Shown here: in pieces, positions 3,501-60,634 of the stretch
How the letters are laid out: the number at the start of each line of letters is the position of its first letter
Numbering within the stretch: position 1 is the stretch's first letter
From: Dendronephthya gigantea
Taxonomy: Eukaryota
Assembly (NCBI RefSeq): GCF_004324835.1
Contig: NW_021163015.1
Span: 3,016,323 to 3,080,322, forward strand
Direction: 5' to 3'
DNA: 64,000 nt
The notes under the pieces: model-generated
What the model saw: only the letters and a program-made list of their open reading frames with translations
Database searches by the model: none
Told to the model about the DNA's origin: nothing
Position numbers and translations under genes: made by a program

Positions 3501-4162
3501 TGTCGACCGCGAAATCTCGCTGTGTTGTCAGTGTTTTCATCTTTTTCTAATTCCAACGTTAATGCGTATCCCCAACTCTCTAAGTCATGGCTTTATGTTA
3601 CAGTACAACTGTATCTTCTCTGACTCAGATCTAATCACTTCTTTATTTTGTACCTCGTTAGGAACAAGACAATGAGTATGATATCCCGGAGAGCGGTCCA
3701 GTTACTGGGGATCCGTCAGCTGGATATCAAGACCAACAAGATGACGAGAATCTCTATGACAACGCTGACGCCATAGTGGAGGGTACTGGTCAGGTGAGGA
3801 TTTTCGAATACAATTTGTATTGCAAACAAAGTTAAATAGCACGCTAATGTGTAATGTACTCTCGTTTAATGTACTTTTAGGAAGAGTCAAGTGGCGATGA
3901 TGTTCGTGCGAAAGCATTGTATGACTATCAAGCAGGTATGCTACAAGTCTTCCCCTCCCCTTCCCCCACAAAATTGCATTTTCCTGCGCGTCACCATTAA
4001 TAATTTTGTATAAATTACCTAGCTGACGACAGCGAGATCACGTTTGATCCAGGTGATATAATAACGGAAATCAATCAGATAGATCCAGGTTGGTGGCAAG
4101 GTAGGGCGCCTGATGGTTCATATGGCTTGTTTCCTGCAAACTATGTAGAAATCATTGATTGA
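546..4162 (+). CDS. DBNL: Drebrin-like protein / actin-binding protein 1: N-terminal ADF-H domain, charged coiled-coil linker, Pro/Glu-rich repeat region, C-terminal SH3 domain. 14 coding exons
   Basis: Translated exons align along the full length of vertebrate DBNL (mAbp1) as I recall it: [28 protein letters not shown] / [18 protein letters not shown] / [36 protein letters not shown] / [25 protein letters not shown] / [16 protein letters not shown]... / [19 protein letters not shown] / [26 protein letters not shown] ... final exon [45 protein letters not shown] (SH3). Exons: 546-628, 742-797, 1419-1531, 1771-1845, 1922-2003, 2133-2191, 2314-2391, 2467-2553, 2757-2821, 2974-3106, 3178-3495, 3662-3793, 3881-3935, 4023-4162. 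Every junction is GT...AG and the phases are consistent. Confidence 0.88.
3301..3420 (+). repeat. Perfect in-frame tandem repeat, 4 x 30 nt (CCTGAACCNGAGCCTCGTTATTCACCAGAG), encoding ([10 protein letters not shown])x4 inside DBNL exon 11. Degenerate PE-dipeptide copies flank it across 3262-3495
   Basis: Read directly from the sequence. The four units differ at only 1-2 synonymous positions. Together with flanking PEPEPEP tracts this yields a Pro/Glu-rich stretch of about 75 aa between the coiled-coil linker and the SH3 domain. Confidence 0.95.
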
Positions 4163-4454: not shown

Positions 4455-4610
4455 TTGCCACCGGGCCACTTGTTCGCGCCAAGCGACTTCGAAAACAAAT
4501 TTCGGTAATGTGATTGGTTGAAGAAAAAAAATCCGTTGCAATTTCTTTCTCATTAGCCAATCACATTACGGAATTTATTACCGCCATGCGAACAAGCATG
4601 GCCAGCGGAT
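4455..4610. repeat. Imperfect ~155-bp palindrome (two ~65-bp inverted arms around a ~25-bp A-rich loop), about 300 bp downstream of the DBNL stop codon and probably inside its 3' UTR. Hairpin-forming or MITE-like element
   Basis: Left arm ...GCCACCGGGCCACTTGTTCGCGCC...AAATTTCGGTAATGTGATTGGTTGAAG. Right arm CTCATTAGCCAATCACATTACGGAATTT...GCGAACAAGCATGGCCAGCGG. Reverse-complementing the right arm matches the left arm along blocks TTGTTCGC and (A)AATT(T/C)CGGTAATGTGATTGG. Confidence 0.6.
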
Positions 4611-4768
4611 CACAGCATTGAATTAAAGAGAAGAGATGTCTACTCTTTGATTAATTTATATGCGCGCTTTGTATTTGTAATGGAACAGAAAGTGCAACTG
4701 ACTGCACTTATCTTAAAGCTAATGTCGCACTGTACTATGTTTAAAACGTGATTAATAGTTGAATGCTA

Positions 4769-4774
4769 AATAAA
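4769..4774 (+). terminator. Candidate polyadenylation signal AATAAA for DBNL, about 600 nt after the stop codon
   Basis: First canonical AATAAA hexamer downstream of the DBNL stop on the + strand. There is no transcript evidence. Confidence 0.3.
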
Positions 4775-7708
4775 ACAAAAGTACGAAACAGTAATTGCAC
4801 TGTAAAAAAAGTAATTTTTGATATAGAAAATTAGTTGATAAATGAATGAGTTCTTCTTTGAAAAAGAGTTGTTTGTTTTGTGAATGACACTGTATAAACA
4901 CCGTGTTTGCCTGAATGTAATTTATTACCCTATTTGTACTTGTGGATGTCCTTTCAAGGACGGATTAGCGGAAATATACTAATCCATATTTCATGGTATT
5001 GCTTCTCCATGCAAACTCTGGCTTGACGAGTTCCTGTATCGGTGCTTCCAAGGCGCAGACCATTTTTCACACTTGTCGTTTTTATCTCCCCAAGTGTCAA
5101 TGGTCCTGGAGAGCGCTCCGTACGCAATCTCTGCGCCCCTGCTATCTCCAACCACAAACCTCAATATGACACACTGATTTTGCTTTGAACAAGACAAAAA
5201 TATGCTACCGGATAATGCGGTCTTGCACTGCCTAAAATAGATGAGAAAACTTCTCGACGTTTCGACGCTTGTCAGAGAGAATATGCTTGAATTCTGAAAA
5301 TATATTTTCGATGATAGATAATGCATGTAGAGTGCTGTTGGTTTTGAAATTCCCACGATGTTCTGTATAACCTGCCCACGGCGATAACACCAGCCCACGC
5401 TGATAAAGAACGTGTCACACAAAAATAACACCATAGCCACCGGTCATTCAACCCGGTTCAAGGTAACACAGGAAAGAATGCAGACAATCTATACCAGAAA
5501 TATCAATGATGCATATACCTTGATTTCGTTATCCAGCAATCCATAGATAAAAAATCTCACTTTTCTTTTATTTTCAACTAGTAAGAAGGAATAGAGAGTT
5601 TTGTGGCTAACGACAGGAATTTGACGTTTGGGACAATACGAAAATGGTTTTAGCTCTCTCTCTCTATAGTATATATAGTTCACTCTAATAACTTGGAGTA
5701 CTAGGCCGAGAAATTGAGAGATACAATAGCTTTAGGGTATGGTGCAGGTGTGGTTAGGGGGGATAAGAACAGGGTGTTGAAAAGATTGCAAGTAATGTAC
5801 TCTCTAGTCAAATTTAGTGCCTTTGTAATAATTGCACAACCAAATTTAGCTGTGATATTATCAGAATATCAGCGTATAGTAACCTGTTCATTACACTATT
5901 GTTCACATGCAAGTAATATTATAATTAATTGAATGTATCTAATTATCGCCATATTATATGCATCAGTTTTTCGCGAAAGCGTGTGGTAGCAACCGCGCGG
6001 ATTTTCTGCAGAAATATTCGTTGTTTTAAACGACTTTGTTAAAGAGATAAAACAGCTGACCAAATTGTTTGTACGTAAGCGAGACATTCTAAATCATTGT
6101 TGCTAAAAATGTCACCAGGTTCAAAGGATGCCAACTACTGTGTTAATAGGGTGAATAGAGGTGTGACATGCTGTCATAACGCGTTGTTCTATATTCAATG
6201 TTGAGATAAGGAAATTAGATTTCCCCAGTAACATGTTGTTCAAATTCATTCTGTTCCAAATGCATGCAGTTTTAATCACATAACCAAATTTCCTTATTTA
6301 CTGTAGTCTGTAATTAAAAAAAGGGCGACGGAATGCATATCGCGATGCTTAACTATAGACTCTGTACGTCTGATGAAACTATGCAAGGAATTGCTATGAA
6401 TGTGAGTGGGTGTTATAACAGTATTGTAGATTTTAAAGGGACTATATTTAGAAAATGAACTAGACCTCACAAAACGGTCATACTTCAAGTGACGGGGATT
6501 GTAAATGATATAGGAACGAATATAAATGATAGAGAGGGTCACGGTTAGGGTAGATTTGCTTCAAATGCTTCAGACTGCTTTGAAACTGTAGTAGGTACGC
6601 TTTTCATTATGAAAATAATTAGAACTGGCTCTCATACATGCAGTCTGCATTCAACGTCATATATAATCTCTAGGACTCTTATCAAGACTGAGGTGAATCC
6701 ATTATGAACAATGATTTAAAAGGAGAGGAACTGCTTGCTTGAAAAAGAGATTCCTCTCTTTATATTATTAAGCTGAAACAAATAAATGATTGTCGTTTTG
6801 TCCATGTGCCGACAGCTTGCATTTGTCAGGACCGCGTGTGTTATCGTTTGTGCATACAATGGACAGGCCATTGTGAATTCCTGCATGTCGCCGAGTGGAA
6901 TTCAAAAGCTAATCCAAAATTAGCTCAGCAAACTATACTTGTTTCGTCTTCTTGAAAGAAATCATTGCGAAACATAGCTGTTGAATGTGAGCACACCAAG
7001 CAATCTGACTAACATTCAAAAATAAATGACAAAGGTAAACATATTTTACAATTAGAAACTGTTGACAGGGAATGAATCTTTTCGACAGATTGTTTTTTCA
7101 TTATATCACCTGTGTATATAAACATTGATGCAATAATCATTTAACATTATTTGCGTTAGCTTAACCACTGTTTACCTTTGCAGAAATAAACCGTTTCAGA
7201 TTAAAAGCGTACAGTTAAATATATAACCTAATGTAGTGTGTACTATATTGGGATTTGGGACATAATCATCTACGCTATCAAATGTCACCCAATGTATACA
7301 TATACATGCATGCAGGCGTTATGTTGCTTTGTCTAGCCATATAAAGCGAGGTTTATTCACAATGGGATGTAAGATTTTGGTTATTATTCACGCTGCATTG
7401 TGAACAGACAACACGCATTGTTGTTGCTGTCGCAATTTTAGTCAGTAACTTCTTTATAAGAACATTATTAGCGTGGAGTCCCGCGGTGCTTGTGGGCGGA
7501 GAACTAACCCGTAATACACTTAATAACTCTCGTACATGACAATCGTTGGTTTATTTTCAGCTTACATATCATATTCGTGTACATGCCAGAGAGCAAGATT
7601 GCACGAACATTTTTAGCAGAGTTTGACATTACCGTTACGGTTGACATTTTCGAAATATACTCAGATCTCGGACATCTGATAGAGTTTTGCGAGCACAAAT
7701 ATTTGGAT

Positions 7709-10700: not shown

Positions 10701-13165
10701 CAAGTATAAATTCATTCAACAACATTAATTGCTCCGTGCTGGATATAAACCGCCTTTGCACGTGCAATATTTAACTGTTAACATGGCGACTTTCATCGAC
10801 TCGTCGATGTCCAATTAATTAAAATTATGGAAAAAATTTCGTTCTCTAAAAACAATGATTATGTGTAGGTTCAGTTTATGAGATTTAGAAGTTTTTTTTC
10901 GCTGGAATTATTTTTTTTTATCAGTCAAGCCACAACTATTCAAGGATTAGAGATGTTTTGGTCTATTATAGTTTTGTCGGATTTTATCGTGGGAAATTTT
11001 CTAGCGTACAAGTGGTTTTAAGACTTGAAGATTTTTCACATTTTTTTTCCAAATTTTACAAATGATCAAGGCTTGTTTTAGGCATAGAGACGTTAAGGTT
11101 GGCACTCTTAGGTACTTAGGTAACATCCTTCTATTCGACTTAACAATAATCTCTGAATAAAGCATTGCAAACTTTATTTGGCAAAACTCTAGAGTGTCAT
11201 TGTGCACGGTGATAACAGCTTTAAAAATATTCCCTTGTGTGGATACATTGAACATTCTCAGCCAACCCAGGGTCTTTCATGGTTCTCAGTCTCAAACGGC
11301 GGGTAATTACCCGCAAATACTCGTCATTTTCCGTCACTGTTCTACGGAAGGTTTTGCAATTCAATAAATAAATAAATGAAAACCTTGGTGCGATTCTCAG
11401 CGCCCCAATTTCCTGTCGCACCTGTCACATTTTATAGCGTTTTAGTTTTTCAGACAAATCTTTCATCGAATAACCTTTGCCCAAGACGTAATCGTTTCCC
11501 TGATCACCTACCTTAACCATGTTCCTAAGGCTTTCTCAAGAAAAAAAAACTCTTCGTTCTAAATTTCAACTCGATCGATCAATATTTCTCACCAACGCAC
11601 AGACTTACCATCGACTTTGTCTGAGAACTATTTCGCAACAAAACCAAATTTGTCTTCTCTGAATTGCATTGTCGCTCTCAAAGTCCACCGCACAATTGAA
11701 AGAAACCCCATTACCAATTTAGAATTAATCAAAACAGAGAAACTATTAAAATAACGGCTCCCAACAAAGCCGGTATGTGAATGATCGTGCTGGGAAAAGA
11801 GTTTGCTGTGTGTGTCAATAAAACACACGCGAGGTAGCTATGCAAGATTCCATTGTGTGTGTTTGAGGGCTGACAATGACCATTTTAGACAACCCAACTC
11901 TTTGTCTCAAAATCTACCGCACGTCTGCGATGGAATATCTGGTATTCCATGTTAAAATCCACGAATATAATCCTAACTTCAATCTTAAATCTGACCTTAA
12001 TTCTTACCCAACTATTAACCCTATAAAAGATAGATAGATTTAAGATCATATTCATAACTCTCTTTCTCCCTAACCACTAACTGATCAAGCAGTCTAAGTA
12101 AACAGTATATGCTCTTGCTGTTTAGATGAAACTTGGAAACATATGGCTTTAATTGACGAAGAACACGTTCCACTTGAAATAAACGACACGACCGGTGAAG
12201 TAAGGCTGCAAACATTTTTTGACATTTCTCCAATTTTAGGAAGTTGATCTTGAATGTGTGCAATGCTTAGAATTCTTAACATTCATTCGGCAATTCCGAC
12301 TAAAGAATATCGTTTAAAATAGCTGCTGTACACCGAGATGGAATACAATAAAACGTGCTTGTTTAGCTCTTTCCTGTCATAGATTTACCAAAATATATCC
12401 ACACATGCAGGCACCACTGGAGAAGAAAAGAGAGTTATTAGATTCCACTCTGTATAAAACAGTTTTTTAACGGTGCATGATAGCATCTTAAAACTGGAAT
12501 TATCTATTAAAATGAAGTATTATATCCACAATACAGACTATATAAGATATTTTATCTTACGCACTTTCCCATAAAACATGCATGAAAACGACGCACTACC
12601 GACACAAACTACTTGATTTTTGGTCCCACAAATGATAACATCGATTCTCAGTGAACTGGTCATCATCTGGTGATAATTCAATATACCTACGATTTCAACA
12701 ATTGCTTGTTTGCCTTTTCAGTGTTCCGAAGAGAAGCTGGACTTGTATGTTGGTTGTGGGGATGTTTTTATTATAATGTATTCAATTACCGACAAGGAAT
12801 CACTAGAACATGCTAAGCATTTGGGCGAATCGGTTCAGCGTAAAAAACCAGACGCGTCGGAGAACATTGTTCTAGTCGGAACCAAAGCGGACCTTGAACA
12901 TTTACGTCGTGTCGACTTCAGCTCTGCGCAGGAAACCGCAAACGAACTCCAGTGCCTTTTCCAAGAAATCTCCATCAGTGATGGTTACGAACAAGTTGAT
13001 AGACTATTCCAGGAATTATTGCGGAGATATTCTAAGAAAATCAGCGCGCAAAAAGCTCCCGTCAAATCGATCTTGAAAAAGAAACAAAAAAGCAAAGATA
13101 ACTTAGGCAAATCATCGTTGAGTCGCAAGAAAAGTATGCATAATTCTGTACCCATTGTAGAATAA
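7709..13165 (+). CDS. Ras-like small GTPase, RERG/RASL11/RASL12 subfamily (paralog A), 4 coding exons, no C-terminal CAAX motif
   Basis: Exons 7709-7796 (MRRRRSGMILQHANAIRVVILGKKGVGKS, P-loop), 9446-9502 (ALTVRFMTKRFIGEYDSSG), 12126-12199 (DETWKHMALIDEEHVPLEINDTTGE, G3 motif is DTTGE), 12722-13165 (...DVFIIMYSITDKESLEH...IVLVGTKADLEH...FQEISISDG...SMHNSVPIVE*). The alignment resembles human RERG ([25 protein letters not shown]...DTAGQ...LVGNKADL) as I recall it. An alternative upstream in-frame ATG at 7583 would add 42 aa. I prefer 7709 because it mirrors the short basic N-terminus of paralog B. Confidence 0.8.
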
Positions 13166-15024: not shown

Positions 15025-18000
15025 ATGATGAAAACGAAAAAGCGTTCATCATCAACTACAAAACATGTCAATGTCATCGTACTTGGTCAGGATGGTGTTG
15101 GAAAGTCAGGTCAGAAATTCAGAATTAATGAAATATCGATCAGTCTAATGTAGGTTTATAACTTATAAGCAGATAGCATGTGGTTTATTGGAGCAAAGAG
15201 CCAAAGACGTTCTTGCACCATCAAATATTTTTTTATCAAAAACCATTACGCAATAAAGATTATTAAGCCTCGTTGGAAGTTTGGGGCAAGAAGCTCTCTC
15301 TTATTTTAGTCTATCATAGTGAACGAGATAGACTATAAATAATAATATACTGGGTTATGTGTTGCAAAATTCATGGAAGGCTGTTATTGACTATATTTGT
15401 ACAGTTTGAACTGTGTAAGATGACAAGTAAACGATGGAGTGATAGCACATGATTGTCATTATGCATGCAAATACTGCATATTTGTTCATCTCTCATAAAC
15501 CTCGATTACCTAAAACTAAAGGGTATGTTCTGTTCAGTCTTGCTTTGGTGAATTTCCTTTGTTTTTGTGCGGGATTTCCGCACAAAAGAAGTCATTCAGT
15601 ATACGCGTTGCGGTAATTAACAGAATGATAACGGAGATGAATTATTAAACACCATCCCGCTAGTTCAAGATAACATGCAGCTTGCATCGTGATTACACAT
15701 TCTGTGTCGTTCACTCGTTCTTGTAACCAGACATTTTACGCAATACCGCTTCTAAAACGTCACATTGCGTCATTACATTTTTCTTCTCATCTTGACAGGT
15801 AGAATGGTCTAGTGTTTTACACAATTGTAGCGAAATCTTCAATGACTCTTCATCACATTTCTAAAGTCTACTGCGGTCAAGAAAGGTTAAGGACATTGTT
15901 TTTTTTCCAAATTGCGTTGACACAAGCCGTGATTTCATTTCAAGTTTGATGGCCAGAGCATTATTCTGACCATCTTTCTATTTCAGTTTTCAACGAAGAT
16001 CCGATTTAAATTTTTTTGCAAACTGGTTATAACACAGACTTCATGCATTTATGATTTGATACAAGTTATGACTAAACTACAAATACTATTTGTTTTGTTT
16101 CTTAATTCCACTCATTTTTCGCCAAAAATGGTTAAGAAGAATTCGAGGTTTGCACCGTTTGCTGGAAAATATGGCTGAGAGATCTTACATAAATATCGTC
16201 AATCTGTCGTTGCTGTCAACAACATCTGATAGATGTTAAACGAAACTAGATTAGGTTAAATTGCTTGCATTTTATGATATCCGAATCGGCGAGGATTTCA
16301 CTGCATGAATTGATTTTTGACGATTGAAATAAGCTGATGTTAGCCTGTAGTTAGCCGGAGAACATGCAAAATACAATTACTCTCTTAGATTATTATTATT
16401 TACTGAATATCAAATAAGCATTTAACTTATACACCTGTCAGTACCTAGACACATTGCAACAAGATAAGTACATATATAGCTACATCGCGTTCAATCATAT
16501 AGTTGCAGTGAAAAACACTCCATTAGATCACAGTCATTTTTACTTCGCTGAGAGGAATGAATTAATACAATTATCTGCACTGCATCAAAGGACTCTTTAT
16601 AAGTGAATATAGTTTTCGATTTTTCTTCTTCCAGTTTCTACGTATCATTTGTTTATTTGAGTGTCTCCTGACCTGATAACCTAAAATAATAGCAGATAGG
16701 ATTGCCATATGAGCCACAGATATTCAGTGCATGCAGAGCAAATTGTAAGAAATATCGTTTTATTTTATGCCTCCGTGTTTAATCCACCTTGTCAGTTTAA
16801 TTGGGTATTTGAGACCTACCAAATCAGATTATAAAATACCAAGCCTAAAAACAGTGGCAGAAAATGAAAACAAGGAAGGAAATACGATTCCCGGCACAGG
16901 CAGCAGATTAAAAAATTCCACTTCCAGCCCACCTGCATTGCGAGGCTGTCTTCTCGTAATTTCATGTTTGGATTTTTAATATTTTAACTTAATATAAAAC
17001 TAAACAGATCCTAAAACCAAAAAGATTTTGCCTATAAGTTGGTCCTTATAAGAAAATTCTGGATTGTTTACGTTGATTCATCGTTGCACTGTTTATTTTC
17101 ATTTCAAGTATGTAAATATATAATCGCATTGCAACCATTTAGCGTGCCACGACTGTATTTTTTTGTTTAAGCAGAAAGAGATTTAATATGTACAGGGTTC
17201 AATGGGTTAAGTTAAAGTTAGATATGACTCTCATCGATCTTGGCCCAATTAAAATCTGATTTGCATCTGCCAGTCCAGAGGATTTTCATGCAGCGGAAAG
17301 GAATGAATTGCTAGTTTTTTAAAAAGAGAGCAGACGGCGTGGTTGAGCAAGCAATACAGATTTCACCGGATTAGTTATTTGATGGACCTGTGTAAATTGC
17401 ATAGGCTCTATCGACTGACTCATCATTAAAATTAGCCTTGTCTGTTGACTTTGTTTTTAAATTCGTTGACTCTCTTTCGTTTTCTTCATGTCTTGCCAAT
17501 TGCTCTAAAAATTGTACTTTTATTTTAGCTTTTACAGTTCGTTTGAAAACAAAGCGCTTTATTTGGGAATACAGTAATATTGGTAAGTCTTATTGTTTAG
17601 GCGAGTGATGAAACATTTTGAGGGTAAGCGTTGTACAACTAAAATATTTTGTGTATTTAGAGGACAGTTATAATCACTGCTTAGAATATGAAGGAGAAAA
17701 TGTTTCATTGACAATCACAGATACATCCGGACTGGTAAGATTACTCGCAATTCTTTTAACGATTTTAATGATCAATTCTTTAAAGCTTCGTCTTTGTTCA
17801 CATGATGACATTGGTTGATGCCAAAAAAATGTCTGACTTTAAAGCTTCACTTTGAAACTTATTGGCTTGTTTTAAATGAAATGATTTACACAACTTTTGA
17901 TGAACATATTACGTTACTCAGCTCTTCACAAACATTAAACTTCTGTCTTCAGAAATCTGAGAAAGAACTTGAAGAATATCTTAGAATTGGAGACTTGTAC

Positions 18001-18369
18001 ATAATCATGTACTCAGTCACGGATCGAACATCATTCCTAGAATCCAGACGTCTTGGAAGCTTTCTGCGAGAGAATAATTCTGGGAATTTCGAGATGGCAC
18101 TTGTCGGAAACAAAACTGATTTAGAACATGCCAGAGAAATCATGGAAAGCGAAGGAACTTCACTTTCGGAGGAATTAGAATGCAAATTCTATGAAATATC
18201 TGTGGCAAAAAACTTCTTCGATGTTGAGTACATGATGAATGATGCGGTGAAAGGATTCACAAAAGCGTCAGAGTGTAGATCAAGTAGAACTTCATTATTG
18301 AAAGTGAAGGAAAATTTATCGCGGAACAAGTCTTTTAGATCGTTCAAAAGAAGAATGTCGATTTCGTAA
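15025..18369 (+). CDS. Ras-like small GTPase, RERG/RASL11/RASL12 subfamily (paralog B), 4 coding exons with the same intron positions and phases as paralog A, no CAAX motif
   Basis: Exons 15025-15109 (MMKTKKRSSSTTKHVNVIVLGQDGVGKS), 17529-17582 ([18 protein letters not shown]), 17661-17734 (EDSYNHCLEYEGENVSLTITDTSGL, G3 motif is DTSGL), 17953-18369 (KSEKELEEYLRIGDLYIIMYSVTDRTSFLESRRLGSFL...ALVGNKTDLEHAREIMESEG...FYEISVAKNFF...KRRMSIS*). Intron phases are identical to paralog A, which fits a tandem duplication. Confidence 0.8.
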
Positions 18370-18861: not shown

Positions 18862-19569
18862 TTATTTTTTATCGACTCTTTTTACAGCTTTGTATATGTA
18901 AATATCGACATTTTCGTCGTAGTGTACTTTTGAAATCTCGAATTTCTCATTCAGAAGTCCAAGAAAGTTTCTGTCTCTCTTATATCTGATTTTACAGGAT
19001 AGTAACACTATAGTCCTGATATCACTTAACTCAGTGATCGTTTGAAGTAGCTGTGGAAATGTGTCTTCAATGTATACAATATCAGCACCAAGGATGTAAT
19101 CAAATGGGGGTTTAAACGGCGAGACATCTTGTCCCCATTCCAACTCACGGACATCAACAGAAGATGAGTTCAGATTTTTAATATTTCTCTTGACATTATC
19201 ATGAGCTAAGTCCAGAGCCATCCGTCTGTCTGTTATGGTGACTTGTGCTCCAAGGTAACCTGCAACAATCCCAACCAAACCAGTACCTGTACAACAAAAG
19301 GATATCAGGATTAGGATTAAAAGATTAGGATTTATAGATTCATGTGATCCAGTACCTGCTCCAAGCTCAATGACTCTCTTCCCAGTTAAATCCACCATTG
19401 TCTCTAAGTACTTTACTAAAACAAGGGCGGCGTCCCATACAACAGCTGCTACACCATTCGTCTCCCAATCTTGGCTAATATTCACTGTATGACCTGCAAA
19501 CGTGAACTCTCTTGAATCTGTTTGAAAAATTGTAAATAACTTGGGAGGTTCGTAAACTACCAATTCCAT
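18862..19569 (-). CDS. METTL21A: Protein-lysine methyltransferase METTL21A-like (seven-beta-strand methyltransferase), 2 coding exons with an in-frame 69-nt intron at 19287-19355
   Basis: Translation [56 protein letters not shown]...[43 protein letters not shown]...[79 protein letters not shown] aligns end-to-end with human METTL21A as I recall it ([32 protein letters not shown]...ILGADIIYLEETF...[26 protein letters not shown]). The intron (GTACTG...TTGTACAG) splits motif I, GAGTG|LVG. An in-frame ATG 90 nt upstream (19659) would prepend the hydrophobic peptide MLSIVLNKLLFVIAISAMMSCGEKSSSKNN. Confidence 0.85.
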   Translation of the reverse strand: [235 protein letters not shown]

Positions 19570-20186
19570 ATTATTTTTTGACGATGATTTTTCCCCACAG
19601 CTCATCATGGCACTAATAGCAATCACAAATAGAAGCTTATTCAGTACTATAGACAACATTAAATCATTTGTCTTGACTCAAAACTAATTGTAAACGTGTC
19701 CTATTTTTAAACCGCTCCTCGGATGGCGGCCATCTTTGTTTTAAAATATGGTTTATAGATTTTGTAAGTACTTCATGTAAATGGAGAATAGGAATGAGGA
19801 AAATGAATTTATAAACAACATTAGTAAGAAAGTCTGTAAGATTCCTTTAAAACTATCACAAAAAGGTTTAAGAGTTTCTTCACGTGAAGGGAATAAATCT
19901 ATTTGGTTAAATGTGAATTGTCATTTTCACTTTCTTTTTTCCCCTCTGTAATTTTCTTAACATGACTGAAATGTGTGCATTAAATATGGTCAGTGGTTGC
20001 GAACCTGCAACACTTCATTTAATGCTCGCCACAAAAAACGTGTCCAAACTCTAAAGTTCTAAAGTACAGTTTCAATTTGCTGTGTTTCTTGTGGTGGTAA
20101 ATTGTTCAGAAATTAAAGCAGATTCAAACGATTTGTGTGTTATATTAGAAAGGGAAAAGGCTCGAGTATCTCAAGGAGCAGTATAA
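19570..20186. promoter_or_regulatory. Putative bidirectional promoter, about 617 bp, between the divergent METTL21A-like (minus strand) and GPAA1 (plus strand) start codons
   Basis: The two genes are head-to-head. The interval has no ORFs and contains a CpG-containing stretch (CCGCTCCTCGGATGGCGGCC). This is inferred from gene arrangement only. Confidence 0.4.
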
Positions 20187-37648: not shown

Positions 37649-38833
37649 CTATATTCTGTACGCCTTCCCAATGTTAATATTAGTATCGTTCTGCTCAACA
37701 GTTTTCATCATATTTGTTTCAACAATGGGTGAAACACGTTCGTTATTGTTCGATTCATTACTTTTGATAACCGAAGTTTGAACATGCGAGCTGCCATAAG
37801 TCGGAGAGAGTTTTGCATGAGGAGGGGAAGCAGGCATTTCGACTGGCTCTCGTTTAATATTGATCACCCCGTGTTCTGCACCGTTTTCAATCGGCACTGT
37901 CTGTGCGATGGGTTGCGTTACAACATGAACCACTTCGGAGCCGTTTGCAGTTACAGGAGCCTGTTGAACCACTGCAGTCTGGCCGTTTGTCGTGTTGGGC
38001 CTAATAATTACACTCCCGCCTTGTACAAACACATAAGGAGTATTTAAATTGTTTTTTCCAGAGCCCGGGACTTGTGTAATGATCGTCGAGGTAGCTTGAT
38101 TTGTATGTTTCAGCACGGTGACATTAGAATATTGTGTTTCTTGCCAAGGGCTAGGTAGGCCACCTTGCGAGATGTTAGTGTATTGACCATAAGGACGTTT
38201 CATTCCTCGTTGGCGACGTTTTGGTTTGTATTTATAGCCGGGATTATCTCGCTTGTGTTGCTTGTCCAGTTTGGCTGCCTCTTCGACATAGGGCTGTTTC
38301 TTATCAGCGGGTAACATGCGCCATAATTTTCCTAGCATTTTACTCAACTCTGCGTTATGAACGTGAGGGTATTGTTCAGCTAGTTGTCTTCTCATTGATT
38401 GGGCCCAGATCATAAAACTATTCATCGGCCTTTTAATATGCCCTTCTTTGCCGCTTTCTAACGAAAATTGTTTGGCCAAAGCCTCGTGGCGACTCTGGTT
38501 GTCTTTCGCCAACTCCGCTCGGGCGATTGCCTCCATATCGAACGTGGCCGGCCATTTTGTCTTACTTTCGTCTTCTGAAAGAGGTTTTGCTTCGTTGCCG
38601 ATATCGTTAATGTGTTCTCCTTTACCGCTTTCGTGTGCGACGCTCGCTGCTTGTCCGACGCCATTGCTGTGTTTGGCAACATCGGGTCGCGCGATCGCAT
38701 CCATGTCTATGTTCGCTTGCCACACTTTGTTTTCGCCGTCGGTTGCTGAAAGAGGATTGCCTTCTTTCCCGACGTTGTCCGGTCCAATTCCCAGTGTAGA
38801 AATCGTTGGTTTTACATCGCATTCAGTGGCCAT
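37649..38833 (-). CDS. Sox-family HMG-box transcription factor with a SoxE-like HMG domain, encoded in a single uninterrupted exon of 394 aa
   Basis: HMG box at about 38213-38440: [75 protein letters not shown]. Compare SOX9 as I recall it: [75 protein letters not shown]. The shared WAQ..RR.LA.QYPH.HNAELSK.LGKLWR signature is SoxE-type. No recognisable SoxE dimerisation domain precedes the box. Instead the N-terminus carries an internal duplication of roughly 50 aa ([21 protein letters not shown]...SGKGEHI vs [22 protein letters not shown]...SGKEGHI). The ORF-track start at 38854 is TTG, so the first ATG, at 38833, is used. Confidence 0.8.
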
Positions 38834-39207
38834 GATGCTGTCTCTAGCTCGCAATAAACAAAGCGATGACTATTGTTCCAAAGTAAAAGCTATTGTTTTC
38901 GTGTCACGTGGCAAAAGTGTCCCTTTAGGGCTTTTGTCAAACGATACGATCTGTATTTTTAATCAAGTGCTTCCTTTTCTTCTGTTGTTACCGCGTTTAG
39001 CCCAATAAACGTTTCCCTAAATAACCTTCCCCCTCATGGCAAGAAGGCCCAGTTCAGATAGACAGCAAGCAGTTGAAAGCAGCGGAAATAATGGCATTTG
39101 AACCTGAATAGCTCTGAAATAATTAATGCAGGGAACAAAAGCTTGAAAGAGACGCCGAAATCTATTGTCAGTAAGAAAAGACAATATCCTATCGCTAACA
39201 TTAGCGT

Positions 39208-39215
39208 GTTTAATT
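39208..39215. repeat. Target-site duplication GTTTAATT, 5' copy
   Basis: Identical 8-mer immediately outside both transposon termini (…GTGTTTAATT|CAGTGGCG…CGCCACTG|GTTTAATTTCC…). Confidence 0.85.
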
Positions 39216-39486
39216 CAGTGGCGTAGCTACCGGTCCTGCTCGTCCTGCCCAGCAGGACTAAAAATTTCCCCAAAATTTTGAAAAAACCACTCCAAAAAAA
39301 TTTATGAAATATTTTTGAAGCCTAAGCCTTATAAATTCCGCAATTATATTTTTCGATTCGTTTCTAGCAACAGTTACCACTCGGAAGCTCGCGCCCGCAA
39401 ATATAATCGATCCCACGCATTGATGCTTCAGGCCTAATAACATATATGACATATATATGATATATATATATACAGATCAATGGCTC

Positions 39487-39634
39487 ACTCCTGCTATTTT
39501 GCCAAGGCAGGAGCTGCTATAATATTCTATAGAAGAAAATACTCAATTCTGATTGGATAAATGGCCTCTTACTCACTCATAATTGGCTGGTTACAACTCC
39601 GCACTCCTGCTATCTCGACAAGGCAGGAGCTGCA
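39487..39634. repeat. Two copies of a 32-34-nt hairpin motif, (G)CACTCCTGCTAT(T/C)T(T/C)G(C/A)CAAGGCAGGAGCTGC, at 39487-39518 and 39599-39634 in the transposon 5' subterminal region. A related palindrome GGTCCTGCTCGTCCTGCCCAGCAGGAC lies at 39236-39262
   Basis: Read directly from the sequence. Each unit is a 7-bp stem (CTCCTGC/GCAGGAG) around a 13-14-nt loop, and all share a CCTGC...GCAGG core. The GGTCCTGC motif recurs inverted near the 3' terminus (GAGCAGGACC at 43221-43230). Confidence 0.7.
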
Positions 39635-39727
39635 TATTGTATTGCCTTTTCTTGCGAGGTTTCCGCGTGAGTACACACACTTGAGCGTAGTTTGCATAGT
39701 TATTGTCTTTGAGCGAGTGTTTTTGTA

Positions 39728-41889
39728 ATGGCTTCAGCAAGCGTGACGAATCTAGCTTCAACTGAAGCTGATATCATAAATTCTTTGTTAAGAAAATCAT
39801 TTTCTGTTCGAGCAACCGCGGAACAAAATGTTATTGTTAAGCAAAGGCCAATGCCGAATTTGAGTATTAGTGCGAGAGGGAGATCTTTTCAAATGGCTTG
39901 GTATGAAAAGAAGGATTGGCTTTGTGGCAGCACAGAGTTAAAGAGATTATTTTGCTGGCCGTGTCTTTTGTTTTGCCCTGGAAAGTCGCCGACTTGGAGC
40001 AAGAATGGTTATAGCGACATGCATGGCTTCCTCTCTGATTGCAAAAAGCATGAAAAGGCGAAGTCACACATGGCTGCTTTCAAGACCTGGAAGACGTACG
40101 GTTCCGGTGCTCGAGTGGATTCTCTTATCTCCCAAGCAAGAAGAGACGAGATACAACGCCACAATGAGGAGGTAAGGCAAAACAGAGAAATTTTAAAAAC
40201 CATAACCGAGGCTGTTTTGTATTTATCCAAACAGGAGTTGGCGTTTAGAGGCCATGATGAATCTGAAGATAGCTTGAACCGCGGTAATTACAGGGAGTTA
40301 CTCGAGTCCTATGCTAAGTTAGATTCTGTATTTGAACGACGATTGCATGGCAGACTAGCTGAATCTGGTCAGGGTGGAGATTCACGTTTCACTGGGGTCT
40401 CTCCTGAAATACAAAATGATTTAATCTGTTGCCTTGATTCCATTATTGAAGATACTATTTTTAAGGAGATTAACGAGTGTACCTTCATCAGTGTGCAGGT
40501 TGATGAAACTTCTGATGTCTCAACTAAGGAACAGGTAAGCATGATAGTCCGTATGGATAAAGGTTGTGAGATAGTAGAAAGACAATTGGGATTTGGAGAT
40601 GTCAGCACAAAGAGAGATGCTGCTGCCATATCCCAGTTTGTGAAGGATAAGCTTAGTCCCCATTCCAACATCAAGGATAAATTAGTGATGCAAACCTATG
40701 ATGGTGCTGCTGTTATGTCTGGTCATGTTAGTGGTGTCCAGGTTCGAGTGCGTCAAGAATATCCTTTTGCATACTTTGTTCATTGTGCAGCTCACAGATT
40801 AAATCTAGTTTTGTGTCAGTCTGCCTCATCTATAGCCCCTGTTAAAGTTTTCTTTGTTGATATAGGAGCATTTTGTACTTTTACTAGTAATGCCCCTCAA
40901 AGAAAAGCCTTTCTTAATTCTCATCAAATCGAGTTCCCCAGCCCTGGTGATACTAGGTGGTACTATCGATCTCGTGTGATAAGTGTCTTGCATAGAAATT
41001 ACCAGAAACTTCATGACATTTTTCTTGGAGAAGTGGATGAGCCTGGGAGCTGGGATGGAGAATCATTGGGAAAGATACATGGTTTGCTACATAATATTAG
41101 TAGTTTTTGTTTTGCTTTTTGGTCTGTGTTTTTCAACAGATTTTCCAACAATCATCAATCCTATATGAAATTCTGCAAGGCCAACAAACTGACTTTAACT
41201 ATGGTATGGTAAGAATTCAGCGTTTTGTAACCTTTGTTTCTTCTCTTCGTAGTGATGATAAATTTTCTGAATTATACCAAGAAGCAGTAGATATATTGGG
41301 CCCACCAGAAAGCAGACTTGAGAAAAGACACAACCATAAGCAAATTTATTTTGAGATTATCGACTCCATTGTTAGTATGATGAATGAGAGGTTTCAGGAT
41401 ATGAAACAATATGCATTTTTAGATCTTGTCAATCCAAAAAAATTTGCATCTTGGGGTGGGGTGGTACCACCTGAGAAAATTAATTTACTAAAAGAGATGT
41501 ATGGGCCCCTTTATGATATCTCCATGCTTGAGAGCCAACTTTCTTTCATTTACAGGGATCAGGATTTTCATAAAGACACATGTAATGAATTACTAACCTA
41601 TATTTTTAAGTTTAATCTCCAATCTAGTATTCCTGAAGCTGTCAAATTAATGAAAATGAATGTTGTCTTGTCAGTAACTAGTGCTTCTGTTGAAAGGTCA
41701 TTTTCCTGCTTGAAAAGGGTAAAGACCTATTTGAGAAATAGAATGAGTCAAGGGCGCCTTAGTTCTCTTTGTAGGATTTCAATCCATAGAGACATTCTAA
41801 AAGAAAAAGAAGATGCCAATGTGCTACATAGTGAAGTTGTGGAGAAGTTTGTGGAGAAGCCAAGGAGACTTGCCTTTCTTTACAAATAG
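39728..41889 (+). CDS. hAT transposase with N-terminal TTF-type (ZMYM1-like) zinc finger, central RNase-H-like/DUF4371 region and C-terminal hAT dimerisation domain. 705 aa, 2 exons with a 44-nt intron at 41209-41252
   Basis: N-terminus RSFQMAWYEKKDWLCGSTELKRLFCWPCLLF (zf-TTF pattern F..W.....WL........LFC..C.LF). Central ...FISVQVDETSDVS...LVMQTYDGAAVMSGHVSGVQVRVRQEYPFAYFVHCAAHRLNLVL (typical hAT catalytic region). C-terminus ...SVTSASVERSFSCLKRVKTYLRNRMSQGRLSSLCRISIHRD (hAT C-terminal dimerisation motif). The ORF track shows two overlapping ORFs (39728-41212 and 41107-41889). A canonical GTAAGA...TCTTCGTAG intron joins them in frame (...LTLTMV-C-DDKFSELYQEAV...), so the reading frame looks intact and there are no internal stops. 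Confidence 0.78.
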
Positions 41890-41939
41890 TAGACAGGTTA
41901 AGTATAAGAGACATTAGCTGTTGAATGTAAGTATAACTA

Positions 41940-42830
41940 TTTCATTACTAGTTCATCCCTGTTAAATGGGTTCAATTTTTATAATTCATTCATCATAAGC
42001 AGTCCTTTGTGCACTCTTGCACCTTATTGTAATAGCCTGTTATATAAAATATTAAAACTTAAAAAAATTATTTGTATATCATTTAATTGGTCCAAGGGGA
42101 GATATTCACTGCTGGTGTGGTGACCCCATGGGCCATCTGTTCACACTGTATTGAATAGTTACTATTCATTAATTGCTTATGAGTTATGAGCAGTTTTTTG
42201 TGCACTCTTGCACCTTTTCACTTCATGTAATATATGTGTTAAAGAAATATTAAAATCATAAAAATATATTCTTCTAATTATAATAATAATAAAAAATCTT
42301 TACAGAGGAAAGCTTCCATCACCAATAGTGCTTTTCAGGAAGGTCCTCTAAATTGGTTCTAGGGGAGATATCCACAAGTGTGGTGACCCCAATATATAAA
42401 TAATGGGCCATCCCTGTTCATATTGAATTGAATATTTACTTTAAATTCATGTATGAGCAGTCCTTTGTGCACTCTTGCACCTTTTCTTGTAACCTATGTG
42501 TTTAAGAAAGTATTAAAAACATATAAAATCTTATATATTTTTTCTCTTAATGGGGAGATACCCACACTTAAGGTGTGGTGACCCCAATAAATATTCATTC
42601 ATCATGTATGAGTGGTCTTTTGTGCACCCTTGCATAGTTGCACCTTTTCACTGCAATATACATATGTGTAATGTGTTTAATAGTTCTTAGTGACTTCTTA
42701 CTTCTTTTGCATTTACCATTCTGTTCATACTGATACTGTATTAGATATTATCTATATTCTTACTTTTCATCATGTATGAGCAGTCACTAGTGCATTGCGC
42801 ACTATTGTACGTTTCATTGTTTTCCGTTTC
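41940..42830. repeat. Degenerate tandem array (about 5 units of ~150-270 bp) inside the transposon, 3' of the transposase gene
   Basis: Recurrent blocks ATGAGCAGTCCTTTGTGCACTCTTGCACCTT (near 41995, 42185, 42455, 42607, 42777) alternating with GGGGAGATA(T/C)(T/C)CAC...GGTGTGGTGACCCCA(T/A) (near 42096, 42361, 42553). AT-rich spacers contain ...TATTAAAA...ATAAAA... Confidence 0.7.
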
Positions 42831-43257
42831 TTCATTCTCGTTAAATGATATTGAAAACAAGTGACATCGTCTTTGTCAATCGTGAGCCAATTTGCGCTAA
42901 GTGTGTGTACTTGCAATTTGAAAATAAAACGAGGAGTAATGGGCCATGGCATATTTAGTTGCAGCAATACAGAAATGCAATTATGCAACTCTTTTACTTT
43001 CTGGCTATGATGAGCGTTGTCTATTTGACTTCTACAGTGCAAAAGCTTTATTCTCTGAGCCATTTATGGTCTATCAGAGTTGCAGGGTTAGGGCAAATTT
43101 TTTGTTGATACTGCCCCCAGAACGCCGCAAATGCTGTTTCCAGGCTTCCAGATATCAAAAATTTTCTGGGGGAGCATGCCCCCAGACCCCCCTGGGATGC
43201 TCGCACCTTCGGTGCTCGATGAGCAGGACCATCACCGAGGTGCTGGCTACGCCACTG

Positions 43258-43265
43258 GTTTAATT
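43258..43265. repeat. Target-site duplication GTTTAATT, 3' copy
   Basis: See the 5' copy. Confidence 0.85.
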
Positions 43266-46291: not shown

Positions 46292-49200
46292 GAACTAGAT
46301 CATATCTTACGAGATAACTTTGACAGCACAATAAGCCGGTCGCTGAATAGGTTTCGAGGTATGTTTTTTGGCCTATGCGGTTGAAATGTATACACCACAG
46401 AAATTTCCTTTATAAGTGAAAGAAATAACAGTACATCATCCTTGTAGTAGCTCTTATATTCCGCAATTCTATAATGCATAGCTTTAATTTGCTTCAAACG
46501 AACTCGGTCTTTCAAATAAACGTATGTCTCGCTTGCAGTTCTTGCTGATTGTAGTCCTGGAGGATTGGATTCGTTGCTAAAGAAGAAGAGAGTCAACTTT
46601 GTTAAAGTTTCTGAACGCGCATCCTCTGGTATTTATTAAAATCTACTGATGAAATTTAATGAGCTCAAGCTTTTAAATATGTCTGGATGAACTTTGTTTT
46701 TTTTTAGATTTGCAACAGACAAGAGTCATTCTATCTCACATCAATATGACATTGGGTGAGTTGTATCGTCTCTCAAGTGGCCTGAGATCTGAGCTTGGGA
46801 AAATGAATCTTTATTTCAAAGAAGCTAAAAGACTCTGTTCTAGTTCTATGAAAATCATTAGCGGTGACGTCTGTAAGAAATTTGCCCGTGAAAAAGATGA
46901 TTTATTGCCTGGCTCCTCCCTTCAGGTATGTAAATGGCAAATACTTTGTTTCATTATGTTCTCAATTTTCGCCCTTTGTGTACAATGTTATAATAGGTTC
47001 CTAACTTTCTTGAAATAACTTCAATCATAATAACTTAAAACATAGTAAATACGCACGCTTCAGATCAGGCCTTGTTGATTAGTACAAAAGGAAATTGAAG
47101 TTCATTGAAAGAATTTCTTTGTCTAGGCGTCAAGGAATCTCTCAGAAACAACTTCAAGGCTTGATAAGTTTCTGAAGCATTTGAACTACTCCTCAGTCAA
47201 AAAGGTGCCTATCATCATTTGATATTATTATACACATGAACTGCAATACTGCATGACTTCCACCTGAACATGCGTCGTTATCTGGCGTTAAAAGACAACG
47301 CCATTGACGTTCACACCATCGCTAGTCTCTCGAGTGGATACCTCAATTTACACCATGAACAAGTGTCACCGCAAACTTGTTTTCTTGTTTTAGTCAGAGC
47401 ACAAAATGCTGTTCTTCGTGGGAGTATTTTTCCGTGTATTATACTAATATGTCTGCTCGTAATCGTTTGCAGGTACTTGAAACCCAGGAGGATGTTGAGC
47501 GTCAGTTATGCGAAGGAAGATCGGCCAAATTAAGAGGTTTGTATTACATGAGTACATAGCTGTTCATGCGTCTTGAAAGTGCCATCATATGTCGAAAAGC
47601 TTCCGTTTGTGGAAGGTTTAGACGGCGGTTCGCAAGCTTGGGCTAGAGCAAAGTGGGAGGTCCCCACTATTTGTCACAAAATTTCAGTCAATTCTATTTC
47701 AAAAGCTGGGAAGAGCTGGTCAGAACTACATAGGCTGACTTTTCCCGTCTTGTTCGAGCAAATGATCTCTGAATGCATACCATGGTAAAGAAGAAAATAA
47801 TGACACATTGGTTGCATTTTTGTAACTTTTATTACCGCCAATATGTGTCTAGTTGTTTACAGTCCTTGTGTCATAATATTCTAATGTTACATATAGTAAA
47901 ATTTACAGTGCCTTGGAAGTTTGAAACCTTAATCTCAGAAAAAATCGTTAGGAAAATACTAACTCTTGTATAGGCACATTTCATTGCCATGTTTTGTGAA
48001 ATATTGCATCACCTTGCTCAGTGGCTATTATAAATACCACTTTTGTAAAATCTTGCATTGCAAAACAAGAATTTGATCCCCAAGTGCGCGCTCCACCAAA
48101 CTGGAATTTTTTTGTCGTCAACATATCGTATGACCAAATTCCTGGAAATCTGGCTAGACCTGAATTAATTAGATTTACTCCATAATTTGATATGGTCCGA
48201 ATTTTTTGTGCGTCAGGCAATTTATATTCATCGTTCGACCCTTCTACCTGTGCCAAGGACTCGGGTTTTCAAAGCGGATCACTCAGACTGTCTGTCAACA
48301 CAAATAACGTAATAAAGTTAATATTATGGCTATTCTGTTGAACACCCAGTTCGTCTACCATGTCTTAGTTGGTTGTGAACAATTTTAATCTTATCTTGAA
48401 ATGAGATCGCAAATATCCATAAGTTCTGGGAGGTCTTCCAATTGGTCCACTTGAAGTTCGCGCTCCAAATAAGTCAACAAACCTTCATCGACTGGCTGTA
48501 AATTTTCAGTGACGTCAAGATTAGTTCCTGGTATATCTTTCATTTGTCCAGAAGTGCTTGGCGAAACATCACGTAGCGACGTTGGAAAGCTGCCCTGTCT
48601 CAATGACTGATAATTAACGGCATCAACATGTTTTTCAGACTTGCATAAACCATAAGCGTTGTTTTGAAGCTCTTCAAATGCACAGAAATCGTCATTATTG
48701 TCATACAATGAAGCACACGGTAACTCCGTGATGTTGTTTAGTTTCCTCGTCATTTCCGCAATGTCTTCGACCGTATTAAACGGGCAAAACAAATCCAAAA
48801 GTACGTCCGTTTCTTCTCGACAGAGTTTGCATCTTTTGCTCTCACACGTGTAAACGATGTAAGCTTCTTGATCATGCACAGTTTCTGAGTTGGTCGTTGA
48901 GCAAAGTTTGCAATTCAAATCTCTACATACAACCACGTTGCAGTCGCTGGACTGAAGCATTGTCGGTTGCAGAAGTTTCACTGAAATCTTTGTAAAACCC
49001 AACGCAGTAGACTCTGTTTTGCATGAAGTTCTGCACGATGATAGTGTGAACAGACGAGACAATGTCCCTTTCTTTTAAACGTGACTATTTACAATTCGAA
49101 GCAGTCCTTGGGGCAATGCGGTCTTCGAAATAGATTACACCGCTTTGCCTGCTCATTAAATCTGTCTGTCAATAAATGCAGTATTTTAAATTCCAGGATA

Positions 49201-60062: not shown

Positions 60063-60634
60063 TCAAGGTGTTTCCGACTTGTCATGTTCACTTTTGCTCA
60101 AAATTAAACTCTCATCCGATTCGGAACATGGTATCTTCATAAATTCCACTGGCTCTTTGCATTCGAACAACCTGCTGATCGACAGTAGGGCACTGGAGAC
60201 TATTGCCAGGCCAACGGTGATGTACACGAATGTCAACACTGTGAACAACACCGTGTGAAGTCCGTTATGCTTGCTTGTATCCGCTGGATGAAGTGGAACG
60301 AAGTCTCCGAAGCCGATCGTGGAGAGAGTGATAAAAGCAAAGTAGAAACCCTCGAAAAATGTCCATCCTTCATAGGCATGCGCAAACGCTGCCAAGGTTA
60401 ACAGTAACAGGGCCATGATGGCGAATACAATGAGTGTCGTCTTGAACTGAATGTTCACAGGCTCTTCTCTCCGTAGAAGTCGTTTTTCCACGCTCGTGAT
60501 CACCTCGGGTAATATCTCCGCCACCTTCTCGCCGATGGATTTTAGCATGAGCCCAGCTATTGGAATTCCTAACAACGCATAGACAATGCAGAATGTACGA
60601 CCCCAGGTGGTTATGGGTGTCATGTGACCGTAGC
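60063..60634 (-). CDS. Two-pore-domain potassium channel subunit (K2P/KCNK), paralog B. Only the 3' portion was found; the 5' exon encoding TM1-P1 lies beyond 60634 or outside the window
   Basis: Minus-strand exon after acceptor TTTTCAG|GCTACGG: (G)YGHMTPITTWGRTFCIVYALLGIPIAGLMLKSIGEKVAEIL...EGWTFFEGFYFAFITLSTIGFGDFVPLHPAD...TFVYITVGLAIVSSALLSIS...SETP*. It shares about 45% identity with paralog A exons 2+3, with the same YGH...P2 TIGFGD...LAIVSS architecture. It is tail-to-tail with paralog A, with stop codons 1.2 kb apart. Confidence 0.75.

Follow-up and report, generated by a model that had tools for sequence, protein, structure and literature searches.

A hAT transposon beside a SoxE-like gene in the soft coral Dendronephthya gigantea, inserted recently and carrying a probable one-nucleotide frameshift

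In a 64,000-nucleotide stretch of the genome of the soft coral Dendronephthya gigantea (contig NW_021163015.1; hereafter the window, numbered from its first letter), a 4,042-bp element (39216-43257) lies next to a SoxE-like gene. The locus raises the question of whether this element is a mobile transposon or a resident gene of the host and, in the former case, whether this copy can still encode a working transposase. The original prediction described an apparently intact, autonomous transposon of the hAT superfamily, and named a host-domesticated ZMYM1-like gene as the alternative. The element is an ordinary member of the hAT superfamily of cut-and-paste DNA transposons, belonging to the 'ZMYM1-like' (DUF4371) clade, and it is a true insertion; its transposase gene appears to be interrupted by the loss of a single nucleotide.

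The ends of the element and the duplicated target site are as follows.

39208-39215, no strand: left copy of the target-site duplication (TSD), GTTTAATT; read directly, and present in one copy only at the joined flanks in the related sequences L001 and L002.
39216-39227, + strand: left terminal inverted repeat (TIR), CAGTGGCGTAGC; perfect reverse complement of 43246-43257, and the same 12-mer ends the related elements L003, L004 and L005.
43246-43257, - strand: right TIR (GCTACGCCACTG on the + strand); read directly.
43258-43265, no strand: right copy of the TSD, GTTTAATT; read directly.

Both the 8-bp duplication and the 12-bp inverted ends are perfect, as had been predicted: the two octamers are identical and the two TIRs are exact reverse complements. 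When the TIR 12-mer was searched for in the window with at most one mismatch, the two ends of the element were the only two matches, against 0.06 expected. The combination of TIR and TSD is far beyond chance. Further in, a repeat search revealed an imperfect subterminal inverted repeat (39232-39256 and 43206-43230, 76% identity).

Searches with the Sox gene led to two orthologous loci: L001, a Tara metagenome scaffold whose Sox protein is 95% identical (DNA about 84%), and L002, an ENA contig with a Sox of 83% identity. In each case the alignment with the window covers both flanks and passes precisely over the element. Positions 2464-5819 of L001 correspond to window 39215-35940, and positions 1435-2471 correspond to window 44280-43258; the 8 bases by which these segments overlap are the target octamer. 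The empty sites read …CATTAGCGCGTTTAATTTCCGTTCTG… in L001 and …CACTAGCTATTTTAATTTCCGTTCTG… in L002, with a single octamer in each (GTTTAATT and TTTTAATT respectively), and the junction predicted for D. gigantea without the element is GCGTGTTTAATTTCCGTCTTG. It had been proposed that a non-duplicated octamer at the empty site would make the TSD coincidental; this reasoning is inverted, as the single GTTTAATT found is what a real TSD predicts. Because the element is absent at the orthologous Sox loci and the octamer there is single, it is a true insertion and not a syntenic domesticated gene. The insertion postdates the split of the lineage from the two sampled related species. Elements with the same TIR and other perfect TSDs elsewhere, together with a second copy of about 98% identity, likewise bear out a bona fide hAT insertion.

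The transposase gene lies on the + strand of the element, and its parts are listed below.

39728-41104, + strand: transposase coding sequence part 1 (frame 2), codons 1-459; open reading frame (ORF), Pfam DUF4371, invariant residues in alignment A1.
41104-41108, + strand: frameshift site, a run of five T (T5) at which six bases would keep the frame; AGT TTC TTG in homologues, and the sole out-of-frame indel.
41105-41889, + strand: transposase coding sequence part 2 (frame 1), codons 460-720 plus stop; ORF 41107-41889, Dimer_Tnp_hAT, colinear with homologues.
41209-41252, + strand: the 44-nt 'intron' of the original prediction, actually frame-1 coding sequence …RIQRFVTFVSSLRS…; translated in the relatives P0001, P0002, P0003 and P0005.

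The gene had been described as an uninterrupted ORF of 705 residues with one small intron. It is instead covered by two ORFs, 39728-41212 and 41107-41889, the first of which stops in frame 2 at the TAA of 41210-41212. Full-length relatives are 720-723 residues long and read …SGLLHYLNSFLFCF.VCVFYKIL.QSSILY..LQ…TDFNYG…IERFKTFVSSLR.DE.F…. In the window this stretch is split by frame, with frame 2 reading …HGLLHNISS to 41104 and frame 1 then reading FLFCFLVCVFQQIFQQSSILYEILQGQQTDFNYGMVRIQRFVTFVSSLRSDDKF…. A nucleotide alignment of the whole coding sequence with L003 and L005 contains two indels only, an in-frame one of 6 nt near 40374 and one of 1 nt, a base missing from the window, at about 41106 (AGTTT-TTG versus AGTTTCTTG); there is no gap at 41209-41252. 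Addition of one T to the T5 run gives a 720-residue product with zero stop codons, which is colinear with 16 relatives (alignment A1) and 79% identical to P0001. The second D. gigantea copy, P0005 (XP_028413650.1, LOC114536504, on another contig), shows about 12 differences from the corrected protein over 550 aligned residues (about 98% identity), and its RefSeq model reads both the T-run and the supposed intron in frame. Direct reading of the region near 41080-41140 found no GT-AG intron that bridges frame 2 to frame 1 in phase, the sole in-phase GT giving an 'intron' of 14 nt. Judging from these homologous sequences, the transposase gene of the family is a single exon of about 720 codons, and a 1-nt deletion in codon 460 replaces the reading as an intact ORF with a 44-nt intron.

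Part 1 of the coding sequence holds the zinc-finger residues, DUF4371, D259 and D325, while part 2 holds E656 and the C-terminal dimerisation domain. Pfam searches identified DUF4371 in ORF 39728-41212 (E=1e-18) and Dimer_Tnp_hAT (PF05699) in ORF 41107-41889 (26.7 bits, E=5e-6; 23.2 bits in the corrected protein, with a cut-off of 21.4). In alignment A1, D259 (VQVDETSD) and D325 (TYDGAAVM) are invariant and E656 (SASVERSFS), which is reachable only with the frameshift corrected, is nearly invariant. The motifs HCAAHRLNL and TRW are also present in the corrected protein. The catalytic and hAT dimerisation signatures that had been claimed are therefore found, whereas the claimed zf-TTF domain is not found by Pfam: none of its zinc-finger models was significant on the transposase, the best being zf-C17orf113 (E=0.17). 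Even so, C76, C79, H108 and H114 are invariant in A1 and form the zinc finger pattern CxxC…H-x5-H, and one distant relative is named 'TTF-type domain-containing'; it is from this residue pattern and that name only that a zf-TTF domain may be suggested. No MYM fingers were found in the element by Pfam. A profile of the family matched the Hermes transposase among solved structures (2bw3/4d1q, E=1e-7), and a single-sequence search of the same structures with the transposase gave no match. Relative to L003, the ratio of non-synonymous to synonymous substitution rates (dN/dS) is 0.18 before the frameshift and 0.15 after it.

The product of the assembled gene has 459 native residues, followed by 35 that are read out of frame. 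The copy as assembled cannot make an active transposase because E656 and the dimerisation domain are missing, which speaks against its description as intact and autonomous. The copy is probably non-autonomous, and it could be mobilised in trans by the transposase of another copy, since its ends are perfect and its subterminal motifs are conserved. No further stop or frameshift occurs in the 720 codons. Because there are no other defects and dN/dS is equally low downstream, the frameshift would be either very recent, as is probable, or, with a smaller likelihood, a homopolymer assembly artefact.

The account considered probable is that of a genuine, fairly recent hAT insertion with a real and very recent frameshift, so that the copy is no longer autonomous. 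A hAT element of the 'ZMYM1-like' (DUF4371) clade entered a conserved non-coding block, at a point 382 bp upstream of the SoxE-like gene, and left the 8-bp duplication expected from the staggered cut of hAT transposases. A later 1-nt deletion in codon 460 would have truncated the transposase and abolished autonomy, and transposase from another copy could still excise this one. If Sox is affected, this would be because the proximal 382 bp have been separated from some 230 bp of conserved sequence further upstream. Several observations weigh against this account. The frameshift sits in a homopolymer of a PacBio/FALCON assembly corrected with short reads, and short-read correction is less reliable within multi-copy repeats. 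The dN/dS values downstream and upstream fit a very young mutation and an assembly error alike. The sole D. gigantea paralogue seen, P0005, is itself annotated without the N-terminus and without 56 internal residues.

That the same hAT element shows an assembly error in the homopolymer, the real copy having an intact 720-codon ORF and being autonomous and possibly active, is the unlikely but serious alternative. FALCON was used to assemble PacBio reads, with Illumina correction at 128x (PMC6447388), and a single base of a T-run is affected, with constraint not relaxed downstream and no other stop or frameshift. The perfect TIRs and TSD fit this alternative too, and the paralogue of about 98% identity suggests recent activity. 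However, the run is just 5 T long and the correction was applied at the depth given above. Homologues read TTTCTTG, without a homopolymer, so that an error would also require a prior C-to-T change. In addition, the 720-, 705- and 494-residue models of the locus all lack an exact match in the protein collection.

A truly intact autonomous element, with the 44-nt stretch spliced out to give a functional 705-residue protein, is very improbable. The stretch opens with GTAAGA and closes with a pyrimidine-rich tract and TAG, and its excision restores the downstream frame, yet all homologues and the RefSeq model of the same-genome paralogue translate it, and the related genes are single uninterrupted ORFs. 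Splicing would drop 15 conserved codons and leave 35 codons read out of frame. This frame-2 tail, the 35 residues before the donor, agrees with P0001 at 7 positions, whereas residues 460-509 of the corrected reading agree at 38 of 50; the conserved F460, F462, F464, Q484 and D489 would be deleted or scrambled. Scarcely credible is a host-domesticated ZMYM1-like gene next to Sox by chance: related proteins do carry the database name 'zinc finger MYM-type protein 1-like', but the locus is empty at the exact site in two related species, which is refuting, the TIRs and TSD are intact where domestication predicts their loss, the reading frame is broken, the relatives are multi-copy with differing TSDs, and ZMYM1 is reported from eutherians only, its C-terminus being of hAT-transposase origin (PMC3212892), the name reflecting transposase similarity and not orthology.

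Relatives of the transposase number 424 at E<=1e-10, the closest of which come from octocorals (Paramuricea, Xenia and D. gigantea) and other assemblies. At the loci of P0001 and P0003 there are complete elements, which share the 12-bp end and are flanked by perfect 8-bp duplications of differing sequence. The complete elements are the following.

L003: 4,701 bp, TSD TAAACACA.
L004: 5,205 bp, TSD TATACAGT.
L005: 5,327 bp, TSD ATCGGAAG.

Each of these contains one uninterrupted ORF of 722 or 720 codons, and the right ends of L003 and L004 have one mismatch to the TIR. Because L003 and L004 are 99% identical and have unrelated flanks, the family has recently been active in the genome from which they derive. 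The number of internal repeats differs between the two. The flank of L004 (1-4164) holds a non-long-terminal-repeat retrotransposon with RVT_1 and Exo_endo_phos_2 domains, so that this hAT copy has repeat-rich surroundings. When metagenome contigs were scanned for the first 21 nt of the element, 12 further contigs of the wider family came to light, none from D. gigantea. Two of the 12 are short non-autonomous elements of 1,118 and 1,240 bp (TSD 7/8), and many of the contigs break just inside the element end, as repeats do. Within D. gigantea, only the second copy was seen, at the protein level. The annotation of P0005 begins at the counterpart of Met114, and residues corresponding to 186-241 in the corrected protein are missing from it; the copy may itself be defective, or its defects may have been skipped in the gene model. 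No published account of this transposon family in octocorals emerged from a literature search.

The non-coding parts of the element comprise three regions.

39216-39277, + strand: 5' subterminal region including the palindrome GTCCTGCCCAGCAGGAC (39242-39258); conserved in the family, putative transposase-binding region.
39486-39633, + strand: two 32-nt direct repeats, 39486-39517 and 39602-39633; repeat family D7, 91% identical.
41890-43245, + strand: 3' non-coding part; four to five degenerate internal repeats and a conserved 3' subterminal stretch at about 43096-43231.

About the first 60 nt of the element are kept across the family, and similarity ends beyond that point. The 5' subterminal region is 95% identical to L003 and L004 and 85% identical to L005. 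Among the metagenome contigs identity is 84-96% for 11 of 12 and 73% for L015, with L012 stopping 2 nt past the search pattern; the first 21 nt, being that pattern, are identical across these contigs by design. The palindrome GTCCTGCCCAGCAGGAC becomes GTCCCGCCCGGCGGGAC in L007 and GTTCCGCCCGGCGGGAC in L005, both arms being altered together with matching changes. The motif TCCTGC/GCAGGA has 27 matches in the window, nine of them inside the element, and seven of these nine fall in its first 420 bp. Each 32-nt direct repeat holds the inverted motif CTCCTGC...GCAGGAG (TCCTGC matches at 39489, 39507, 39605 and 39623), and both repeats lie upstream of the transposase ATG. The subterminal TCCTGC/GCAGGA motifs and the region 39216-39277 are putative transposase-binding sites. 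From 39485 onward the element is 79% identical to L003.

At the other end, the degenerate internal repeats (41985-42800, spacing 155-267 bp, repeat families D1-D6) were detected by one repeat search and were not reported by Tandem Repeats Finder. The 3' subterminal stretch is 76% identical to L003 and L004 over element positions 3881-4016 by BLAST. L005 contains many tandem copies of a unit related to the 3' repeats of the element. In its 3' non-coding part (4547-6012) there are at least 14 copies of a unit of about 32 nt, about 70-80 nt apart where tandem, that match GGGGAGATACCCACA…TGTGGTGACCCC; the window element has only three copies of this motif, which are degenerate (42551-42586).

The neighbouring gene and the conserved sequence upstream of it are as follows.

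37649-38833, - strand: single-exon SoxE-like gene, 394 residues plus stop; identical to D. gigantea XP_028390812.1, 'transcription factor SOX-8-like'.
38834-39215, no strand: proximal part of a conserved non-coding block, from the three-species alignment; the other part runs from 43266 to about 43500, beyond the element.

The Sox gene was correctly placed by the original prediction, at about 380 bp and in opposite orientation: its ATG at 38833 is 382 nt from the element and the two genes are divergent. An HMG_box domain was identified by Pfam (E=8e-24), and the best named relatives are Sox-8 of Exaiptasia and SOX-10 of Nematostella, at 49-51% identity. Membership of the SoxE group was judged by a Sox-type HMG box closest to those of Sox8/9/10, and these results agree with it. 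The conserved block was delimited by removing the element in silico and aligning the window with L001 and L002. It extends from about -380 to about +230 of the insertion point (about 600 bp) and is mostly 80-100% identical to L001 and 55-97% identical to L002, beyond which identity falls to about 50%. With the element in place, the proximal 382 bp and the Sox start codon are cut off from about 230 bp of conserved sequence further upstream. A regulatory effect of the insertion on Sox is possible from this position. The block is probably the Sox promoter or 5' untranslated region, and its proximal part contains several Sox-like ACAAT(A/G) motifs and one CACGTG. The most far-reaching proposal is that a young, perhaps polymorphic insertion splits a deeply conserved, promoter-proximal SoxE block and measurably changes the expression of the gene, in a family that, given the 99% identical copies and intact 722-residue ORFs of a related genome, would be currently active in octocorals and usable as a cnidarian transgenesis vector; this is considered improbable.

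Other genes were also seen in the window. A METTL21A-like methyltransferase gene (18865-19659, - strand) has an ORF that reads in frame through a 69-nt intron; the 23 residues encoded by the intron are missing from the D. gigantea RefSeq protein (P0208), and the other residues are identical (242/242). P0208 and the Sox protein XP_028390812.1 are encoded on one contig of 4.15 Mb, and these protein matches place the window in D. gigantea. Two paralogous exons (12710-13165 and 17815-18369, both + strand) each specify the C-terminal half of a GTPase of the Ras family (Pfam Ras, E=2e-17 and 1e-15), and a tandem gene pair is therefore suggested. An exon for an Ion_trans_2 potassium-channel pore domain (E=2e-20) lies at 60063-60623 (- strand), and a low-complexity ORF of Pro-Glu repeats lies at 3190-3675 (+ strand). 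At 48391-49062 (- strand) there is a 223-residue ORF with no Pfam match, the DNA of which is 68.5% identical over 661 nt to L002 1047-1684; possibly a gene not yet characterised lies here, upstream of Sox.

The finding is chiefly of value for annotation, as the octocoral gene models named 'ZMYM1-like' are copies of hAT transposons. For one such family the ends, the target duplication and the single-exon, 720-codon gene structure are now defined. The locus also offers a dated insertion that two related species lack, within non-coding sequence that is strongly conserved, beside a developmental transcription factor. Should the insertion prove polymorphic, nature would have supplied an experiment on how a soft coral regulates SoxE, and if intact copies are active, the family could become a cnidarian transposon tool; neither point would surprise a specialist. 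Mildly notable, and only that, are the split Sox-proximal conserved block and the evidence for recent activity of the family in octocorals.

Membership of the hAT superfamily was judged by an 8-bp TSD, a TIR of about 10-25 bp starting with (C/T)A(G/A), a core with the catalytic Asp-Asp-Glu triad (DDE core), PF05699 and an N-terminal zinc finger (BED/TTF). The element has an 8-bp TSD, a CAG… TIR, a Hermes-related DDE core and a hAT dimerisation domain. It resembles the known members of the superfamily (hobo, Ac, Tam3, Hermes, TcBuster and Tip100) in its 8-bp TSD and in short TIRs that begin with CAG. The resemblance extends to one transposase in which a putative N-terminal zinc finger is combined with an RNase-H-like DDE core and, at the C-terminus, a dimerisation domain, and to the occurrence of autonomous and short non-autonomous copies with common ends. 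Unlike these shared features, similarity to Hermes itself is found at the profile level only, the two being too distant for a single-sequence match. The superfamily is divided into the Ac, Buster and Tip groups (PMC3942097). Among the six TSDs seen, neither nTnnnnAn nor nnnTAnnn fits consistently, and this signal is too weak for assignment to a subgroup. The precomputed Pfam match of the relatives to 'FAM200-ZBED5_RNase-like' is weak.

Closest to the element are the octocoral proteins annotated as 'Zinc finger MYM-type protein 1-like' or DUF4371 (Paramuricea clavata, Xenia sp. and D. gigantea LOC114536504 and LOC114525891), which belong to the same protein family. Identity is 60-79% to those of other species and about 98% to D. 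gigantea XP_028413650.1. Clusters of these proteins include many fragmentary members, as decaying transposon copies would give. The database entries are bare gene models, whereas here a full element with TIRs, TSD and empty site is available. Unlike them, the window copy is frameshifted by 1 nt and has no entry in the protein collection. The mammalian ZMYM1, from which the database name is taken, is alike in its domain derived from a hAT transposase. ZMYM1 is specific to eutherians, and its C-terminus, which came from a hAT transposase, is fused to MYM zinc fingers (PMC3212892). In contrast, the window element is without MYM fingers, has kept its TIRs and TSD, and is absent at the orthologous loci.

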